Positions 38,091 through 45,721 of a DNA stretch of 64,000 nt are shown one piece after another (positions within the stretch are counted from its first letter, which is position 1; each line of letters opens with the position of its first letter). The notes under the pieces were generated by a model that saw only the letters and a program-made list of their open reading frames with translations, did not search any database and was not told the DNA's origin. The position numbers and the translations under genes were made by a program. This DNA is from an uncultured Woeseiaceae bacterium (lineage in GTDB: Bacteria > Pseudomonadota > Gammaproteobacteria > Steroidobacterales > Woeseiaceae). The DNA lies in contig CAXBJV010000014.1 in NCBI GenBank assembly GCA_963976215.1, positions 6,158-70,157 on the forward strand, written 5' to 3'.

Positions 38091-40262
38091 CTACATCAGT
38101 TCGAGATTGGCATAACTCAGAACGAGCCATTTTGTGCCTGCGCCTTCGAAATTGACCTCGACACGCGCATGCGCGCCCTGGCCTTCGTAGTTGAGAATAA
38201 CGCCGTCACCGAACTTCTTATGACAAACCCGCTGCCCGAGGCGAATGCCAAGCTCGTTGTCCGACGGCCGTGCGGCGCTGCTTTGCCGCGAGGGTCGCGA
38301 CGAATGCAGTGGCCGGGCGACTTGTACACGCGGCCGAATCTCCTCGATATGTTCCTCGGGAATTTCGGCGATAAATCGTGACTGTTGCGAGAAATTGTCC
38401 ATGCCGTGCAGGCGTCGTTGCTCGGCGTAGGTGATATACAAAGTCTGCATCGCGCGTGTAATGCCGACATAGCAAAGGCGTCGCTCTTCCTCGAGCCCGT
38501 GCGGGTCCGCAACAGATCGTTGGTGCGGAAACAAGCCGTCTTCCATGCCACACATGAATACCAGCGGAAACTCGAGGCCTTTTGCCGAGTGCATCGTCAT
38601 CAGCTGCACGCAGTCCTCCCAGGCATCGGCCTGACCTTCCCCGGCCTCGAGTGCCGCGTGCGACAGGAACTCATCCAGTGGCGACATCTCTTCGGCGGGA
38701 TCGGGTTCGAAGCTCTTGGCTGCGCTGACCAGCTCCGCCAGGTTTTCGATGCGGGTTTCGCCCTTCTCGCCCTTGTCCTTCTTGAAGTGCTCAATCAATG
38801 TGCTGAGATGGATGACGTGGTCGACTTTGTCGTGCAGGTCGAGCCCATTGGTCTCACGCGCCATGCGCTCGATCAACGACATGAACGCATTGACCGCATT
38901 GGCGGCCCGACCGTTCAGGTCATCGCTCGCGATTGCGCCGGCGGCACGCCACAATGAACAGGCGTTTGCCCGGGCATAAGCGCGCATCATTTCAACCGTG
39001 CGCGCGCCGATGCCGCGTGTTGGCTTGTTGACAATGCGTTCAAACGAACTGTCATCATCGCGATTTGAAGTCAGGCGCAGGTACGCAAGCGCATCCTTGA
39101 TTTCCGCACGCTCGAAAAAGCGCAGGCCACCGTAAACCCGGTACGGGATACGCGCATTGATCAAACCTTCTTCCAGCACGCGCGACTGGGCGTTGGAGCG
39201 ATACAGGATTGCAGCGTCCGCACGGGCATTGCCCTGTGCGATCCAGTCACGCAGCCGGCCAATCACGAAATCGGCCTCATCGCGCTCGTTGTACGCGGAA
39301 TAGAGCTTTATCGCTTCGCCTTCGGAGCCGTCGGTCCACAGGTTTTTGCCCATGCGCGAACTGTTGTTAGCGATGACTGCATTCGCTGCGTTAAGAATTG
39401 TCGCGGTGGAGCGATAGTTTTGTTCAAGCTTGACGACTTGCGTGCCTGGGAAGTCTTTTTGAAAGCGGTGAATATGCTCAACGCGTGCACCGCGCCAGCG
39501 GTAGATCGACTGGTCGTCGTCGCCAACAACAAACGGCACGCCTTTACTCCCGGCCAGCAGTCGCAACCATGCATACTGAATCGCATTGGTGTCCTGAAAC
39601 TCGTCGACGAGCAAGTGCTGGAAGCGGCGCCGATAATGCTCGAGCAGCTCGGCGTTGTCGCGGAGCAACTCATGTGCCCGCAACAACAGCTCGGCAAAGT
39701 CCACCAGTCCGCCACGCTGACAGATTTCTTCGTAGGACTGGTACAGGGATATCTGTTGCCGCCGGTTTGGGTCACCTTCATCATCGATGTGTTCGGGTCG
39801 CAGGCCCTCATCTTTCTGGCCATTGATAAACCACTGAATTTCTTTTGGCACCCAGCGGCTGTCATCGACCTCGAGGTTCTTCAGCAGTCGCTTGATCAGT
39901 CGCAACTGGTCGTCAGAGTCGATGATCTGAAAGTTCTGCGGCAGTTTTGCTTCGCGCCAGTGGCGCCGGAGCATGCGGTGGGCGAGGCCATGGAAAGTCC
40001 CGATCCACAAGTGCTGGACCGGGACGTTCAGGAGCGACTCGATGCGACCGCGCATTTCCGCGGCAGCTTTGTTGGTGAAGGTAACGGCGAGCAAGCCCTG
40101 GGGAGACACGCCCTCCACTTCGATCAGCCAGGCGGCGCGATGCACCAGGACCCGTGTCTTGCCGCTCCCAGCCCCGGCGATGACCAGCGCGGGTTCGGAT
40201 GGCGCGGTAACGGCTTGACGCTGGGCGTCATTAAGGTTGTCGAGGATCGGTGTGACATCCAT
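38091..40262 (-). CDS. uvrD: DNA helicase II (UvrD family, SF1)
   Basis: 723 aa with the motifs AGAGSGKTRVL, LLVDEFQDTN and VGITRA. Confidence 0.9.
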   Translation of the reverse strand: MDVTPILDNLNDAQRQAVTAPSEPALVIAGAGSGKTRVLVHRAAWLIEVEGVSPQGLLAVTFTNKAAAEMRGRIESLLNVPVQHLWIGTFHGLAHRMLRRHWREAKLPQNFQIIDSDDQLRLIKRLLKNLEVDDSRWVPKEIQWFINGQKDEGLRPEHIDDEGDPNRRQQISLYQSYEEICQRGGLVDFAELLLRAHELLRDNAELLEHYRRRFQHLLVDEFQDTNAIQYAWLRLLAGSKGVPFVVGDDDQSIYRWRGARVEHIHRFQKDFPGTQVVKLEQNYRSTATILNAANAVIANNSSRMGKNLWTDGSEGEAIKLYSAYNERDEADFVIGRLRDWIAQGNARADAAILYRSNAQSRVLEEGLINARIPYRVYGGLRFFERAEIKDALAYLRLTSNRDDDSSFERIVNKPTRGIGARTVEMMRAYARANACSLWRAAGAIASDDLNGRAANAVNAFMSLIERMARETNGLDLHDKVDHVIHLSTLIEHFKKDKGEKGETRIENLAELVSAAKSFEPDPAEEMSPLDEFLSHAALEAGEGQADAWEDCVQLMTMHSAKGLEFPLVFMCGMEDGLFPHQRSVADPHGLEEERRLCYVGITRAMQTLYITYAEQRRLHGMDNFSQQSRFIAEIPEEHIEEIRPRVQVARPLHSSRPSRQSSAARPSDNELGIRLGQRVCHKKFGDGVILNYEGQGAHARVEVNFEGAGTKWLVLSYANLELM

Positions 40263-40320
40263 CGGGGAGGTACTGCCAGGGAGTCGAAAGCGCGCCAGTG
40301 TAGCAGGAATCGAGCGCTCT

Positions 40321-40342
40321 AAAACTCGCGAATTGGCGCGAG
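40321..40342 (-). terminator. Weak intrinsic terminator after the TPR/barrel OMP gene
   Basis: CTCGCG (40325-40330) / CGCGAG (40337-40342), a 6-bp GC stem with a 6-nt loop. It is followed on the minus strand by TTTT (40321-40324). Confidence 0.35.
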
Positions 40343-40355
40343 CGAAACGGAAACG

Positions 40356-41963
40356 CTATTGCTCCCAGCGCACACCCAGGTTGTACTGGTAGCGTTCAAA
40401 CTGGATACGCGGATCGTTGGATACCGTTTCCCGGTAGCGGCCTTCAGCGACCAGGCTCAAATGGCGCGTCATCTGGAATTCTGCTGTCAGGCTGATCTCC
40501 GCCGATTCGTGTGTCTTGCGCGGGGAGTTCGGGTTATTGAAGGCGAATGCATTCGGGTAGTCGTAAAGGTGGTAGATGCCACGGGCCTCGAATTCGAAGC
40601 GCTCGCCCGGGTCCCAGTGAATTTCCACGCCGGCGCTGTCGCGCGTGTAGTCGTAGTAGCCGACATACTGATCGATGCGCTCGGTGCGTTGTGCGTCGAA
40701 GCCAAACCAGAGGCTGCCGAAAATACGCTGCCGTGCCGTTAACTCCAGCGCATAATAGTCATAGCGAATATTGGGATTGCCCTGGCGCGGCGTGCCGTCG
40801 AGGTCATAGGCCACGCGATCGCCAAAGCGGCGGCTGTACCCTTCCGCGGTAATGCGAAACAGCGACGACGATGTAAATTTGTACTGTCCATACAGCCGCA
40901 ACAGGAAATACTCGTGATCGTATTCAGGCACGAGGTCCTGTGATTCGTAATTCCACAGCTGCCCCTTGATCGTTGCGCCGATGGCGAGACGTTCGTGCGA
41001 TTGTCGCAGTCGCAGTTCCGGTCCATAGCGCAGGTAGTTCAGCCGGTCGTCGAGCAGCATGCCATTGAAGTCGCGCGTGGTACCGTCGTCCGGATCGAAA
41101 TAGGTTTCCACGTGTTGCGATATCGTGAAGGCACTGCGCACCTGGCGCTCTCGGCTACCTTCCTTGCGCTGATACTCGCTACCGAAACTCGCCTCATGCT
41201 GATACTCGTTGGCGTTCTCCAGTTCCTTGTCCTGGTAATAACGACCAGCAAGTCGGTAGCGAACATAAAACCCCTCGAACTTGAGGCTGTTGATCAGGTA
41301 TTTGGCATTCAGGCTGACCGGAATAAAGGCACCCGACTGTACGACAGGAACCACTGTTGGCGCGGCCGGATCGGACTGGTCGGTATACGGGTCTTCAGGC
41401 GAACGAAACACGTTGTCGTCGGTGCCAAACCCGACACGAATGCGAAACTGTAAGTCGGCGAACTTGCGTTTTTCTTCGCGCTCGGCAACGCGAATCTCGA
41501 AGTCGTCCAACTGCGCCTGTTCAGCGCGAATTCGGTCGATCGCAACAACGGCATACGATTGAATCTTCTCGCTGCGGTTCTGGTCGCGCGCCAGGCGAAA
41601 CCAGCGCAGTGCTTCTTCGATGTCACCAAGCGCGTAAGCATTGAGGCCGAGGTTGTATTGCGCGGTGATCTGCAGTGCCGGATCGTCAAGCGCCTGCAGC
41701 AGTTCGTCCCGCGCGCGAATGTGTTGACCGGCACGGTAATGCGCAACGCCCATGTTGTAATGCAGCGTCGGCGTATCCATGCCCTCTTCCTGCGCCTGTC
41801 GATAGCGCAGCAAGGCCGCCCAGTACAGGTCGTCACGAAACAAGCGGTTACCGTCGTCAAAATACTGGCTGGCCGTCATGGCATGTGCCGGTACGAGCGG
41901 CAGCAAACCGATGATTGCTGCCAGCAATGCCGGGCAAACCGTGCGATGAATCTTCTTGAGCAT
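40356..41963 (-). CDS. Outer-membrane protein: signal peptide + N-terminal TPR domain + C-terminal beta-barrel
   Basis: 535 aa. Signal peptide ending PAHA. TPR-like repeats at about residues 30-150 (YNMGVAHYRAG, AQYNLGLNAYALGD). The C-terminal ~360 aa show an alternating aromatic/polar beta-strand pattern ending YNLGVRWEQ. Confidence 0.7.
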   Translation of the reverse strand: MLKKIHRTVCPALLAAIIGLLPLVPAHAMTASQYFDDGNRLFRDDLYWAALLRYRQAQEEGMDTPTLHYNMGVAHYRAGQHIRARDELLQALDDPALQITAQYNLGLNAYALGDIEEALRWFRLARDQNRSEKIQSYAVVAIDRIRAEQAQLDDFEIRVAEREEKRKFADLQFRIRVGFGTDDNVFRSPEDPYTDQSDPAAPTVVPVVQSGAFIPVSLNAKYLINSLKFEGFYVRYRLAGRYYQDKELENANEYQHEASFGSEYQRKEGSRERQVRSAFTISQHVETYFDPDDGTTRDFNGMLLDDRLNYLRYGPELRLRQSHERLAIGATIKGQLWNYESQDLVPEYDHEYFLLRLYGQYKFTSSSLFRITAEGYSRRFGDRVAYDLDGTPRQGNPNIRYDYYALELTARQRIFGSLWFGFDAQRTERIDQYVGYYDYTRDSAGVEIHWDPGERFEFEARGIYHLYDYPNAFAFNNPNSPRKTHESAEISLTAEFQMTRHLSLVAEGRYRETVSNDPRIQFERYQYNLGVRWEQ

Positions 41964-42040
41964 TTGGGTGGAATCGGCTCGCGTTATGTCAGATTTGAAA
42001 GAGTACAGACTAAAGGGGTCATAAAACTATGACGTAGTCG

Positions 42041-42079
42041 AAAAAAATCCCCCCGAAAGGCTGGCAATCGGGAGGATTT
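42041..42079 (-). terminator. Intrinsic terminator after the polyacidic protein gene
   Basis: The minus-strand RNA is AAUCCUCCCGA-(11-nt loop)-UCGGGGGGAUU followed by a U-run. The stem is 11 bp with one mismatch. It begins 26 nt after the stop at 42105. Confidence 0.6.
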
Positions 42080-42104
42080 GAGGTTTCAGGCGGTTTGCGG
42101 GTGT

Positions 42105-42614
42105 TTAGTCGACCACGGCGCTGTCGTCATCATCGTCGTCGTCATCCTCATCCTCCATATCGTCATCCATGTCGTCGTCGTCATCTTCGACCGGGATGTC
42201 GTCTTCAATTTCGTCACCGTCTTCGAAGTCGTCGTCATTCTCGAGCTCATCTTCGTGCTCTTCTTCCTCTTCGTCACGATCGAAATCGTCCTCTTCATCG
42301 TCCTCGTCAACGAAGTCGTCCTCGTCCTCTTCCTCTTCTTCGTTACGGCGATCTTCATCGTCATCGATTTCGTCTTCGCCGCGGTCATTCTCGCGTTCTT
42401 CCTCTTGTTCCTCGTCGCGTTGCTCGTCTTCGTCGATGTCATCGTCGTCAGGGCCGCGCATCTCGGCAATTGCCTCGTCCAGATCATCGGCATCGTCAAC
42501 AATGATCATTGTGACGTCGAGGTCGTCCATGGCGTCATCCGCGTGCGCAAGGCCCGGGAAAAGTGCGAAACAGGTAAGCACCAGTGTTGCTGCAAAAATA
42601 GTAAGTTGTTTCAT
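42105..42614 (-). CDS. Secreted hyper-acidic (Asp/Glu-rich) low-complexity protein
   Basis: 169 aa. GGAG lies 8 nt upstream of the ATG. Signal peptide MKQLTIFAATLVLTCFALFPGLAHA. By my count the mature ~144 aa contain 96 D/E, 7 R and no K. The gene starts 12 nt after the anti-sigma candidate stop. Confidence 0.65.
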   Translation of the reverse strand: MKQLTIFAATLVLTCFALFPGLAHADDAMDDLDVTMIIVDDADDLDEAIAEMRGPDDDDIDEDEQRDEEQEEERENDRGEDEIDDDEDRRNEEEEEDEDDFVDEDDEEDDFDRDEEEEEHEDELENDDDFEDGDEIEDDIPVEDDDDDMDDDMEDEDDDDDDDDSAVVD

Positions 42615-42626
42615 CGTACTGCTCCG

Positions 42627-43163
42627 TTAACTGACGTCGATGCGCAGGCGAAAGGTCCGGCCGCGATCGTTGTGAACCAAAGTTGCAAAAACCTCACCGC
42701 CAACCGGCGATGTGGCTATCAATTTGAGTGGCAACAGATTCTTGCCTTCGCTCAGGCTGGTTTGCCACGTGACTTCGCGTTGTCCAGGAAATCCGGATAA
42801 CTCGATGCCATCGGGCAGGCTGACGGTGAGCGTTGCCGAATCGAGTGCTTGCGCCGATGCGAACACGAGCTTCACAGTTTGCGGTTCGGCAAGCGTCATC
42901 GTGATACCGGGTATTGCGGGCTCCGCTGTCGGCAGCTCCGGTGTAGCAAGAAAGACGATACTGATCATCCAGAGGGCCAGACCGGCCGCAACTGCCGTGC
43001 CAAAACCGGTCATCAACCAGCGGTTCCGCTGACGACGCGTGCCCTCGTGGGTTGCACGCACCAGTGCCTGGTCAAAAAAGCCTGCGTCTGCCTCGGGCAT
43101 CGGGTAGTCCTTTAGTAATGCCTGGATCGCCTGATCCTGTTTGTCGATGTCGTCGTTTCGCAT
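42627..43163 (-). CDS. Single-pass membrane protein, probable anti-sigma factor
   Basis: 178 aa with a ~50-aa cytoplasmic N-terminal segment, one TM segment (FGTAVAAGLALWMISIVFLA) and a ~105-aa periplasmic domain. It starts 30 nt after the ECF sigma gene. No HxxxCxxC motif is present. Confidence 0.6.
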   Translation of the reverse strand: MRNDDIDKQDQAIQALLKDYPMPEADAGFFDQALVRATHEGTRRQRNRWLMTGFGTAVAAGLALWMISIVFLATPELPTAEPAIPGITMTLAEPQTVKLVFASAQALDSATLTVSLPDGIELSGFPGQREVTWQTSLSEGKNLLPLKLIATSPVGGEVFATLVHNDRGRTFRLRIDVS

Positions 43164-43193
43164 TTTTCGTATCCTGCTTGTTCCCTTACACGA

Positions 43194-43736
43194 TCACAGG
43201 GATGAAAAGGTTCCGTCGGCCTGAAGAATTTCCCGCAGGCGGGCGCGGGCGCGGTGCAGCCGGGACTTGACAGTGCCGACCGGGATACCCATAAGTTTCT
43301 GAATTTCCGTGAGTTTATAGCCCTCGGTATCGTGCAGAAGCACAATAACGCGATGCTCGTCACTGAGTTGGGCGAGGGCCTTGTCGAGCATCTTGATGCG
43401 CTCAAGGCGTTGCTGGTCATGAACCGGATCGTCGCTGGCCGGAAAGCCGGCGATGCCGTCGTCCGATAATGCGCCTTCGTCCACCGTGCGCATTCGATGC
43501 CGGGCGAAGCGCCGCCGCTCATCGATAAACAGGTTGTACATCATGCGCGCCAGCCAGGAACCCGGCTCGTCAATGCGGACAAGGTCGTCGAGCTTGCCGT
43601 AGGCCTTGATCAAAAGCTCCTGAAACAGGTCCTCGGCCTCCGCCTTCTGTCCCGCCAGACGCCAGGCCAGGCGATACAGCCGCTCAAAATGCGGTCGCAC
43701 GAGAGTTTCAAACGTCTGTTGGCTGGAACGGGTCAT
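43194..43736 (-). CDS. ECF (group 4) sigma-70 family RNA polymerase sigma factor
   Basis: 180 aa. Region 2 (LFQELLIKAY, SWLARMMYNLFIDERRR) and region 4 (LTEIQKLMGIPVGTVKSRLHRAR) are recognisable. Confidence 0.9.
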   Translation of the reverse strand: MTRSSQQTFETLVRPHFERLYRLAWRLAGQKAEAEDLFQELLIKAYGKLDDLVRIDEPGSWLARMMYNLFIDERRRFARHRMRTVDEGALSDDGIAGFPASDDPVHDQQRLERIKMLDKALAQLSDEHRVIVLLHDTEGYKLTEIQKLMGIPVGTVKSRLHRARARLREILQADGTFSSL

Positions 43737-43826
43737 TGCAGACGCAGTGTAGAACGAATGACGGCTGGAGCAAGGAACGGGTTGGTAATCCGGAGATCGG
43801 TGGCGGCATTCAGCCGGGGTATTTGC

Positions 43827-44393
43827 CTAGCGCAGGAGTATCGGCACGCCCGCAAAATACGGATGCAAAAAGAACGCAATCGCGAATATCACGGCACTGA
43901 TTGCGAGCCCCCCGAGCTCGGCACCCGGCCCGGGGCTCACAACCGGTTCGGGGGCACCGTCACGCCGATTGATTAACACTATTTCGAGTGCGGCCCACAA
44001 ACCGAGACCGCCAAAAAGAACCCACGCTCGCATGGTGCCGTTGGTCAGCAGGTGACTCACCGACCAGGCAACGACGCCTGCCAGCATCGGATGGCTGATA
44101 AAACGGCGGATGCCCGTTTTGTAATGCGCCGCACCGAGCAGCGCAAAAGAAATCATCATTAAAACGAGCCCGGCGGGCCGAGACCAGGCTGGTAATGCAT
44201 AGATATAGACTTCCGGCGACGAGCGCCAGCCCATAACGATGAGGACCAGAGATGCGAGGATGGCCAAAGAAAAAACGCCGCGATAGCCCTTTTTCCCTAA
44301 CGTTCCGACCAGGCCTTGTTTCAATCCAGTGGCAAGCGACGGAATCAGGTGCACGCTGCACCAAAGTACAACTCCAATGATCAGTAGGCTCAT
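43827..44393 (-). CDS. NnrU family membrane protein
   Basis: 188 aa with five TM segments. N-terminus GVVLWCSVHLIPS. Confidence 0.75.
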   Translation of the reverse strand: MSLLIIGVVLWCSVHLIPSLATGLKQGLVGTLGKKGYRGVFSLAILASLVLIVMGWRSSPEVYIYALPAWSRPAGLVLMMISFALLGAAHYKTGIRRFISHPMLAGVVAWSVSHLLTNGTMRAWVLFGGLGLWAALEIVLINRRDGAPEPVVSPGPGAELGGLAISAVIFAIAFFLHPYFAGVPILLR

Positions 44394-44526
44394 AATTGTC
44401 TCGCCTTCTTTTCTGGTTTCGCTTGTGCTTGATTCGGGCTTGTCTTGCCTGCGACAAAATGCGGCATCGCGTACTGATACAATCGCATATTCTCAGATAA
44501 GAAGAAAACAAAAAAAGGAATTTTGA

Positions 44527-44913
44527 ATGACGAACAAAGAAATTGTCCAGGCCCTTTATCAAGACTTTGCAAACGGCGATGTTCCAGCTGTGGTCGCGAA
44601 GTTCGATGACAATATTTCATGGACCGAAGCCGACGGTTTCCCTCTCGCAGGTACTTATACAGGCCCGCAAGCGATTGTCGAAAACGTTTTCATGCGCCTT
44701 AGCGAGATCGGTGATGACTGGGGCGTTGTTGTCGACCGAATCGTTGCAGATGGCGACACCGTCATCGCCGACGGCAAATACACCTGGAACCACAAGGAGT
44801 CCGGTGATCCCTGCGAAGTAAGAATGGCACACGTGTGGACGTTGGCGGACGGTAAGGCGACTGCCTTTTTGCAACATGTCGACACTGCACGTGTTCGTGA
44901 ACTTACCCGGTAA
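44527..44913 (+). CDS. SnoaL-like / NTF2-fold (ketosteroid-isomerase-like) protein
   Basis: 128 aa: IVQALYQDFANGDVPAVVAKFDDNISWTEA. Confidence 0.75.
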   Translation: MTNKEIVQALYQDFANGDVPAVVAKFDDNISWTEADGFPLAGTYTGPQAIVENVFMRLSEIGDDWGVVVDRIVADGDTVIADGKYTWNHKESGDPCEVRMAHVWTLADGKATAFLQHVDTARVRELTR

Positions 44914-44944: not shown

Positions 44945-45721
44945 TCAGGGGATTCTTGTGACGACAGTACCCGCAATTAAATCGTGAAGAGCACGGCGCT
45001 TCTTGCTAAACAACATCGTGACGATCTCAACAAGCCACCACGTCATCGCAACGATTCCCGTGCCCATCAGAATAATTTCTGCAGTCCTGGTCAGTTCACC
45101 GCTGTCTTCGGTTACACCAAAGCCGAGAAAGTAGAATAAAGAAATGCAGGCAAACAACACGGGCACTATATCTCGGAGGACAGACTGTTTTAGCGTAATT
45201 TCCCGGGACTCAGACTTGTCCCAAACCTTGACGTGCGTTGCCATTTTGCCAACGGTTTGACCGTAATTGGCGTGCATGGCGATATAGTAAATTAGTACGA
45301 CGAACTGGCTGACCTGATCGACATAAGCTTTGGCAGCGGGTCGGAGAATATCCGCGCCATGCAACACGGACAGAATCACGACCAGAGGCAAGCCGACGAC
45401 AAACCCGTCAATAAAATGTGCCCAGAACCGCCGCCAGAACGTTCGATATTTATTCTCTTCCGTTACTTCGAACGGCCTCAATAGCGTGAATCCACCGAGC
45501 TTTTCTATTTCTCCAAGCAAGCGCTCGGCATACTCGGGGTGTTTCTGCTTGTCGAGTACGAAGTAACAATCCTCAAGTTCGACGACTGACCTCGGCTCCC
45601 TTTTCAGGAGCTCACTCTGCAGGGCGTCGAATACGTGTGGATACAGGTCACCTCGTATCGAGTTGAGGACGTGATATAGCTCAACGAGAGAATAGTCCGC
45701 GTAGTTGGGTATCTTGACCAA
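44945..45721 (-). CDS. RDD family membrane protein with an extra N-terminal soluble domain
   Basis: 258 aa. The RDD-type core starts at RRFWAHFIDGFVV and ends with RRALHDLIAGTVV. The TTG start abuts the upstream stop (TAATTG). Confidence 0.75.
   Translation of the reverse strand: MVKIPNYADYSLVELYHVLNSIRGDLYPHVFDALQSELLKREPRSVVELEDCYFVLDKQKHPEYAERLLGEIEKLGGFTLLRPFEVTEENKYRTFWRRFWAHFIDGFVVGLPLVVILSVLHGADILRPAAKAYVDQVSQFVVLIYYIAMHANYGQTVGKMATHVKVWDKSESREITLKQSVLRDIVPVLFACISLFYFLGFGVTEDSGELTRTAEIILMGTGIVAMTWWLVEIVTMLFSKKRRALHDLIAGTVVTRIP

Follow-up and report, generated by a model that had tools for sequence, protein, structure and literature searches.

What would hold together the genes for a sigma factor, an anti-sigma factor that sits in the membrane, a secreted protein made largely of Asp and Glu, and an outer-membrane protein (OMP), and what could their products do together in the cell envelope? 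The question is raised by a locus in a 64,000-nucleotide stretch (the window) of contig CAXBJV010000014.1 (assembly GCA_963976215.1), which comes from an uncultured member of the Woeseiaceae (JTB255), a group among the most abundant bacteria of marine sediments. By homology searches, too, it is a Woeseiaceae scaffold, of Tara Oceans origin. Four open reading frames (ORFs), all on the minus strand, encode a sigma factor of the extracytoplasmic function (ECF) type, a predicted anti-sigma factor that begins 30 nt past the sigma stop codon, an acidic protein that begins 12 nt past the anti-sigma gene and, beyond an intrinsic terminator, an OMP with a periplasmic tetratricopeptide repeat (TPR) domain and a beta-barrel. 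The initial annotation of this locus had placed the four ORFs, a Shine–Dalgarno site, two signal peptides and the terminator where we find them (Table 1), and had proposed an uncharacterised envelope module in which a stress sigma factor controls a secreted polyanion, possibly exported by the OMP. The module is real and widespread; its function is what we infer below.

A genome scan anchored on the OMP yielded 80 Woeseiaceae loci, and gene order was counted in the 69 that have at least 2.6 kb of sequence upstream of the OMP. Of these, 63 (about 91%) have sigma, anti-sigma, acidic ORF and OMP in this order, and UvrD, TrkA and TrkH usually follow. Within the family this order alone proves little, because the whole region (cox genes, CyoE, UvrD, TrkA and TrkH) is syntenic. 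That synteny is what would be expected if the genes had no functional link at all, had been inherited side by side in one family, and the acidic ORF were a non-functional low-complexity frame. Against this explanation, a profile built from distant TPR-barrel members recovered gammaproteobacterial contigs (L081, L084 with a GC content of 0.47, L085 and L171) that carry the same four genes in the same order between flanks unrelated to those of the window, so that the genes form a module rather than a piece of inherited synteny. In L081, L084 and L085, identity to the window proteins is 48–53% for the sigma factor, 37–46% for the anti-sigma factor and 31–38% for the OMP; L082, L083 and L169 likewise carry all four genes. 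The acidic ORF and the OMP gene also remain together after rearrangements (L033, L086 and L087), in L033 without UvrD downstream. Together with the evidence for translation given below, these arrangements largely refute an unlinked neighbourhood, to which we assign next to no probability, and the proposal of a conserved four-gene module stands.

The scans also separate a constant part of the module from a variable one. The acidic ORF and the OMP gene occur together in every OMP-anchored locus with upstream DNA and in 10/10 distant contigs, and L086, L087 and L170 have only these two genes. A metagenome scan that used the small protein's N-terminal motif as its anchor, counted over informative loci, found the OMP downstream in 42/42, the anti-sigma gene upstream in 55/56 and the sigma gene upstream in 41/43. 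The sigma/anti-sigma pair is cleanly missing from six Woeseiaceae loci (L033, L045, L055, L061, L072 and L080), in which the acidic ORF and OMP are kept and the upstream neighbour is the cox/CyoE cluster. As these six loci are scattered across the OMP tree, the pair must have been lost at least five times independently. Judged by gene content, the scans show an obligate pair, the small protein and the OMP, as the invariant core of the module, and a sigma/anti-sigma arm that is a frequent, ancestral and dispensable companion. The functional link between acidic protein and OMP that the initial annotation suspected is thereby borne out. Among the observations that it had named as able to overturn its proposal were sigma/anti-sigma pairs in related genomes that have neither the acidic ORF nor the OMP gene beside them. 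The pairs do keep both neighbours.

The acidic ORF has the marks of a gene. A GGAG Shine–Dalgarno site lies 8 nt upstream of it, and its product begins with a Sec signal peptide, cleaved between AHA and DD, ahead of a mature chain of 144 residues that contains 59 Asp and 36 Glu and has a net charge of -88. The public assembly annotates it as a 169-aa gene, and where related loci include upstream DNA, an intact ORF of the same layout lies 5' of the OMP in essentially all of them. Differences between loci are concentrated at third codon positions, overall (45552, versus 29478 and 24687 at the other two positions) and in the motif core (14709, versus 6256 and 4891). Because of this bias and the conserved motifs, the ORF is to be read as a real, translated gene under purifying selection in the motif, not as an artefact of composition. 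We rejected as genes two ORFs on the opposite strand (240 aa, Val/Ile-rich, and 153 aa, Ser-rich), which mirror runs of GAN codons, as well as an alternative minus-strand frame of 138 aa, rich in Thr, Lys and Arg, which overlaps the acidic gene and is a by-product of the GAN-codon repeat. In L082 and L021 the acidic ORF shifts frame within the GA-rich repeat and a Lys/Thr/Arg-rich tail follows, the acidic reading going on in another frame; this is probably slippage in assembly or sequencing and could be real phase variation.

The protein matches no family in Pfam or NCBIfam, even at E ≤ 10, and we compared its architecture across 81 loci. Directly after the cleavage site comes motif 1, (D/G)L(D/E)VTMxV(L/I/V)DD, an amphipathic strand, which fits the strict pattern in 77/81 sequences and nearly fits it in the rest. 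A low-complexity charged linker, variable in length and sequence between lineages, separates it from motif 2, (E/D)DDFEDG(E/D)D(V/I)DxDE(F/Y)D, which fits strictly in 59/81 and in looser variants in most of the others. A poly-Asp/Glu tail is usual at the C-terminal end; in the window it is poly-Asp. Linkers include an ERD polyampholyte (L171 and L011), DSDM repeats (L081), HESE repeats (L046 and L169) and a His- and Asp-rich version (L086), with HESE or DH-rich repeats in L046, L169, L058, L059 and L086; the His- or Met-rich versions look like metal-binding low-complexity sequence. Across the family, Asp and Glu make up a median fraction of 0.61 of the mature chain, with a wide range; for the disordered linker the figures are a median of 61% and a minimum of 30%. 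As read from these alignments, the conserved features are two short linear motifs and a disordered charged spacer, and polyacidity is typical rather than obligatory.

The initial annotation saw in this protein a polyanion that buffers cations or sets surface charge. Stated more fully, the acidic protein would soak up or chaperone multivalent cations in the periplasm or at the surface, the barrel, itself of negative net charge, would be the channel that goes with it, and the sigma arm would tune expression to cation stress. The net charge and the median acidity of the family agree with this proposal, as do the metal-binding look of the HESE, DH-rich and DSDM repeats, and a disordered metal sponge in the periplasm has a precedent in SilE/PcoE. 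Metal genes have also been found beside the module. In L082, the OMP and UvrD are separated by an insertion that holds a gene of unknown function (431 aa) and a ZnuA/ABC-3 metal importer, and upstream in L086 there is a P-type cation ATPase; each of these arrangements, however, occurs in a single locus. The acidic protein also has no metal-binding domain and no canonical EF-hand or DxDxDG motif, and readings of its motifs as EF-hand, DxDxDG or carboxylate clamp were dropped, as key positions mismatch. The proposal is weakened by the composition itself, because Asp and Glu fall to 0.25–0.35 in L170, L086, L083 and L085 (0.25 over the whole ORF in L170), and the linker is a polyampholyte in L171 and L011, while both motifs and the OMP are retained. 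We therefore consider cation handling improbable. Motifs that are conserved while linker acidity varies suggest instead that the protein docks, serves as an adaptor or is a substrate that would be threaded.

The invariant partner of this protein, the OMP, has a signal peptide (residues 1–28), matches Pfam TPR_2 (E = 7e-8) and TPR_4, and was modelled with AlphaFold2 from 77 sequences (mean pLDDT, the per-residue model confidence, 87.5). The model has three TPRs and two connecting helices in residues 31–166 and a barrel whose 16 strands lie within residues 169–534. The best-conserved segments of the barrel are two long loops, L1 after strand 1 (DDNVFRSPxxPYxDxSDP) and L3 after strand 5 (ETYFDPDDGxxR). 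As loops that are expected to be extracellular are the most conserved, the model suggests that they may fold into the lumen as a gate. A Foldseek search of the Protein Data Bank (PDB) ranked BcsC first (E = 1e-9, TM-score 0.38), followed by generic porins, with PelB and AlgE also listed; the profile of the OMP family, searched against PDB sequences, matched only TPR proteins and no barrel homologue.

Relatives of this barrel are few. An exhaustive HMMER search with the barrel gave only 269 clusters at 50% identity, which fall into two classes: TPR plus barrel (about 520–550 aa) and barrel only (about 385–420 aa). Some two-thirds of the listed barrel relatives (P0293–P0390) are TPR-less proteins of 385–420 aa that are 25–31% identical to the window barrel, and some of them (for example, P0379) match BBP2_2. 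Among 29 family members, Pfam barrel matches are to BBP2_2 (7/29, best E = 5.7e-9), OMP_b-brl (5/29), MtrB_PioB (4/29), BBP2 (3/29) and SlipAM, that is DUF560 (2/29); a further relative outside this set, P0409, passes the SlipAM cut-off with 27.7 bits against 22. The window OMP itself reaches 14.6–16.1 bits for BBP2_2 (PF10082), over its last 50 residues only and below the cut-off of 23.7, and has no SlipAM (PF04575) match at E ≤ 10 for the barrel alone or at E ≤ 1 for the full length. On these profile scores the OMP is best described as a small, distinct family of the outer-membrane barrel (MBB) clan, a distant relative of BBP2_2 and of Slam and a member of neither. The initial annotation's comparison with TPR-porins and Slam is thus upheld in part: the architecture is shared, and distant homology is indicated by the BcsC-like fold and by an hhalign alignment of the OMP family with a TPR+SlipAM-like protein, at 99.6% probability across TPR and barrel, but membership of Slam/DUF560 or of the PgaA/BcsC family does not hold.

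The second gene encodes a protein with a short cytoplasmic segment, a single transmembrane helix and a periplasmic immunoglobulin (Ig)-like beta-sandwich. It has no match in Pfam or NCBIfam, even at E ≤ 10, and all 1711 of its relatives are without a domain assignment. In its AlphaFold2 model the periplasmic domain has a pLDDT of about 80 and the cytoplasmic part is of low confidence; Foldseek matches in the PDB are generic Ig/macroglobulin folds only. The distant orthologues are informative. They are 207–213 aa long and have, in L081, L084, L085 and L171, an extra N-terminal segment with the HxxxCxxC motif of zinc-binding anti-sigma (ZAS) domains (for example, 'HVEACADC' in L081), and Pfam zf-HC2 matches those of L085 and L171. 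Because orthologues carry this domain, and as the gene lies directly 3' of the sigma gene and encodes one transmembrane helix, its assignment as an anti-sigma factor, already made in the initial annotation, is supported, with sigma binding predicted. Woeseiaceae proteins align from about residue 35 of the distant orthologues and keep about 48 nearly invariant cytoplasmic residues; neither the window protein nor any of its Woeseiaceae relatives has the zinc motif (zf-HC2, PF13490). By this alignment, the Woeseiaceae protein is a ZAS anti-sigma factor truncated at its N-terminus, with the predicted zinc-binding helices lost, which raises the question of how the sigma factor is still bound.

Its periplasmic domain, at 74–80% identity within the family, is also better conserved than the OMP at 64–70%, which fits better with a protein partner than with a variable environmental ligand. 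The first periplasmic strand, GITMTL in the window, resembles motif 1 of the acidic protein (DVTMII/EV), and the likeness recurs as G(I/V)TM(T/A)(L/V) in most of the distant lineages examined (L081, L083, L084 and L085). It may mark a shared docking site or strand exchange; the match covers 4–5 residues.

These observations can be read as evidence for signalling instead of export. The OMP would then be the sensor or transducer of a pathway resembling cell-surface signalling, and the disordered protein a periplasmic coupler or modulator: it might protect the anti-sigma factor as RseB does, sense a ligand as CnrX does, or act as a tether that bridges the TPR domain of the OMP and the Ig-like domain, so that disturbance of the bridge would lead to proteolysis of the anti-sigma factor and release of the sigma factor. 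The order of sigma, anti-sigma and periplasmic-protein genes, with gaps of 12–18 nt and a terminator after the third gene, follows the logic of rpoE-rseA-rseB; a pair of conserved motifs on either side of a charged spacer that varies would suit a tether with two ends; and both the high conservation of the anti-sigma periplasmic domain and the resemblance of its strand to motif 1 (D-V-T-M-E-V) agree with such a contact. However, that resemblance is only 4–5 residues long, the anti-sigma factor lacks FecR, RseB or CnrX homology in Pfam and NCBIfam, and the small protein and OMP persist without the sigma/anti-sigma pair in at least nine lineages or contigs, so they must have a function of their own. 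On balance, signalling as the main role of the locus is somewhat unlikely.

How the four genes are expressed also bears on their function. The sigma factor matches Pfam Sigma70_r2 (8.7e-13), Sigma70_r4_2 (3.6e-16) and Sigma70_ECF and scores 88.3 bits against NCBIfam TIGR02937 (cut-off 42.9); having regions sigma-2 and sigma-4 only, it belongs to the ECF class (group 4). No NCBIfam equivalog, such as RpoE or SigW, is reached (for example, 119 bits against a cut-off of 265), and orthologues in distant clusters are 48–76% identical. Its gene is preceded by -35 and -10 hexamers separated by a 16-nt spacer, which look like a sigma-70-type promoter, and TCCTTGy-N16-17-TAnACT occurs 9–11 nt before the sigma ATG in many Woeseiaceae loci. 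As the -10 hexamer ends 9 nt 5' of the ATG, with similar spacing in relatives, the mRNA probably starts with little or no leader; no Shine–Dalgarno site is present (43737–43773). A conserved 'AAAtGCCAA' box lies just 5' of the -35 hexamer in many loci.

The operon closes with a hairpin and T-run (RNA fold -20.8 kcal/mol, z = -2.3). Equivalent structures are present in 74/80 homologous intergenic regions and in the distant loci L081, L084 and L085, and the stem sequences differ between loci while the hairpin stays, which suggests compensatory change. Beyond it lies a conserved non-coding block with the Woeseiales consensus ACGTCATAGTTT-N14-cCGGTAnnCT-N6-8-CTGACATAACGC (alignment of 65 loci), each half of which occurs once within the window. 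On either side of its -10-like TACTCT stand two heptamers that resemble each other, GTCATAG and GACATAA, at a distance of about 41 nt, and no Shine–Dalgarno site precedes the ATG of the OMP gene. The block is absent from the distant clusters. An Rfam search of positions 40000–44600 gave only a sub-threshold NsiR1 match, over the terminator, and no family for the block, which is probably a promoter, operator or 5' untranslated region. Of other candidate promoters for it, sigma-28 bears a loose likeness with spacing that is 2–3 nt too long, and the spacings of sigma-54 and RpoE promoters do not fit. An ECF-type promoter common to the sigma and OMP genes was looked for and not found.

From these parts we propose a mechanism, which we hold tentatively and with slightly more doubt than belief. 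The module comprises two units, an operon for the sigma factor, anti-sigma factor and disordered protein, with a predicted sigma-70-type promoter and an intrinsic terminator, and a separately transcribed OMP that joins a TPR domain in the periplasm to a barrel of 16 predicted strands. The TPR domain would bind one of the two motifs of the disordered protein, either the N-terminal strand (DLDVTMxVLDD) or the acidic–aromatic segment (DDFEDGEDVDxDEFD), and the gated barrel would thread the charged, unfolded linker and tail or display them at the cell surface, physically much as anionic polysaccharide goes through TPR-porins and proteins go through Slam. The anti-sigma factor would use its periplasmic domain to monitor the pair, through contact with the disordered protein or the OMP, and blocked or altered handling of the pair would release the sigma factor. 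A stronger version, in which this is a novel outer-membrane pathway that threads a disordered charged polypeptide through a 16-strand barrel, with the chain anchored in the periplasm by its motifs and the tether read by the sigma factor through the truncated ZAS anti-sigma factor, we regard as unlikely.

Several observations weigh against the proposed mechanism. No energy source for translocation is evident, and contact between the small protein and either the OMP or the anti-sigma factor is a prediction. By crude strand parity, the residues that face the lumen are of mixed charge (25 Lys and Arg, 19 Asp and Glu) and do not make a clearly electropositive pore, and the OMP has a net charge of -16 overall. 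The link to Slam is not specific, because the Pfam affinities of the family are spread over several families of the MBB clan. Regulation is a further difficulty. The strong terminator between the acidic and OMP genes in nearly all lineages makes them two transcription units that are not co-transcribed; no ECF-type autoregulatory promoter motif was recognised 5' of the sigma gene; and the block upstream of the OMP is unchanged in the sigma-less loci L033, L045, L061, L072 and L080. Because of this last point, the adjacent sigma factor appears not to be required for the block or for OMP expression, unless the sigma gene has been relocated in those genomes. Control of the module by a stress sigma factor, as first supposed, accordingly finds no support, given the sigma-70-like promoter of the sigma gene itself, the separate OMP unit and the persistence of the OMP block in lineages without the sigma factor.

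Table 1 Positions of the module, its parts and nearby features. Positions refer to the window unless a locus is named.
Feature	Position	Strand	Basis
ECF (group 4) sigma-70 family sigma factor, 180 aa	43194..43736	-	Pfam and NCBIfam profiles
Sigma-70-like promoter of sigma operon (predicted)	43746..43773	-	Read from sequence
-35 hexamer TTGCTC	43768-43773	-	
-10 hexamer TACACT	43746-43751	-	
Single-pass anti-sigma factor, 178 aa	42627..43163	-	Topology, position, orthologues
Cytoplasmic segment, residues 1-48	43020-43163	-	
Transmembrane helix, residues 49-73	42945-43019	-	
Periplasmic Ig-like beta-sandwich, about residues 84-178	42630-42914	-	
First periplasmic strand GITMTL, residues 87-92	42888-42905	-	
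ZAS-bearing orthologues of the anti-sigma factor	L081:4588-5211, L085:4660-5301, L171:2603-3232		Compared with window 43020-43163
Secreted disordered acidic protein, 169 aa	42105..42614	-	ORF, signal peptide, motifs
Signal peptide	42540-42614	-	
Motif 1, DLDVTMIIVDD, then charged linker	42492-42524	-	
Motif 2, DDFEDGDEIEDD, then poly-Asp tail	42198-42233	-	
Intrinsic terminator closing sigma/anti-sigma/acidic-protein operon	42041..42079	-	RNA fold and conservation
Conserved non-coding block 5' of OMP gene	41981..42035	-	Alignment of 65 loci
ACGTCATAGTTT	42024-42035	-	
-10-like TACTCT	42000-42005	-	
CTGACATAACGC	41981-41992	-	
OMP, 535 aa	40356..41963	-	Pfam TPR and AlphaFold2 model
Periplasmic helical/TPR domain, residues 31-166	41466-41873	-	
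Barrel, residues 169-534	40362-41459	-	
Rejected ORF, 240 aa	42078-42800	+	
Rejected ORF, 153 aa	42169-42630	+	
Frame-shifted acidic ORF of L082	L082:5187-5800		
Insertion between OMP and UvrD in L082	L082:7996-10962		
Discoidin/OmpA protein, 408 aa	45722-46948	-	
RDD-family membrane protein	44945-45721		
NnrU protein	43827-44393		

We found no paralogues within the window. Near the module, a protein that bears a signal peptide and joins a discoidin (F5/8 type C) domain to a C-terminal OmpA peptidoglycan-binding domain lies beside an RDD-family membrane protein and an NnrU protein (Table 1); none of these neighbours is conserved along with the module.

The module is close to universal in the Woeseiaceae. 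Its ECF sigma/anti-sigma pair and its TPR-barrel OMP are of familiar kinds, but the partner that comes with them is not: it is obligate, disordered and mostly polyacidic. If the barrel does translocate or display this protein, export of the TPR-porin and Slam-like kind would extend to disordered polyelectrolyte proteins, and the driving force would come into question. Should the protein instead tether the anti-sigma factor, it would be a new way to sense the state of the envelope. Threading and tethering combined would amount to a new architecture for secretion or display and cell-surface signalling, distinct from TonB-dependent signalling and from Slam and the type 11 secretion system (T11SS). 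Either way, the locus provides a gene family that is small and well delimited, two peptide motifs that can be tested and, for comparison, natural variants that lack the sigma gene.

Searches of the accessible literature on the gene combination, on T11SS cargo and on the genomic contexts of ECF sigma factors found no description of the module, and its parts are best placed by comparison with systems that are already known. Regulatory systems of the RpoE–RseA–RseB and CnrH–CnrY–CnrX type likewise combine an ECF sigma factor, a single-pass anti-sigma factor and a co-transcribed third protein in the periplasm. In the module, by contrast, the third protein is disordered and has no RseB/MucB or CnrX homology in Pfam or NCBIfam, the anti-sigma factor has an Ig-like sandwich, and a dedicated OMP is always adjacent. 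FecI–FecR–FecA resembles it in encoding an ECF sigma factor, an inner-membrane anti-sigma factor and a dedicated OMP together, but no FecR, Plug or TonB_dep_Rec match was found in the four module proteins. The OMP is also no TonB-dependent transducer and lacks a signalling domain, its promoter does not look sigma-dependent, and the module adds a secreted disordered protein. With the ZAS anti-sigma factors (RsrA, RslA and ChrR), the distant orthologues share the HxxxCxxC domain, whereas the Woeseiaceae protein lacks the first ~35 residues and the zinc motif and is left with ~48 cytoplasmic residues.

For the barrel, the commonest match among members of the OMP family is BBP2_2 (PF10082, putative beta-barrel porin 2), an uncharacterised family that differs in having no TPR domain and for which the window OMP is below threshold. 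Slam/DUF560 proteins (T11SS; PF04575) have the same N-terminal TPR and C-terminal barrel and a Sec-exported partner encoded next door. Nevertheless, the window OMP has 16 predicted strands against 14 and does not reach the family profile, and its partner is disordered, has no Pfam domain and lacks the C-terminal eight-strand barrel of known cargo. T11SS cargo is defined by that eight-strand barrel (the TbpBBD or lipoprotein C-type domain), and a survey of such cargo mentions neither sigma factors nor acidic partners (PMC12282271).

The TPR-porins (BcsC, PgaA and PelB; AlgK/AlgE) are alike in fusing a periplasmic TPR domain to a 16-strand barrel with conserved loops predicted to fold into the lumen, as the window OMP does, and in a presumed substrate that is polymeric, long, unfolded, hydrophilic and for the most part anionic. 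They differ in sequence and setting: the window OMP has only 3 TPRs and is about 9–12% identical to them, with a TM-score of about 0.38, and no polysaccharide synthase operon adjoins the OMP gene, be it in the window or in any of ~90 loci; L084 and L086 have only isolated glycosyltransferase genes, at several kb from the OMP. The constant neighbour is instead a disordered protein made on ribosomes, together with the link to an ECF sigma/anti-sigma pair. The kinds of component are thus already known, and what is new here is a disordered partner that is obligate, a barrel family of its own and a ZAS anti-sigma factor that has been truncated.

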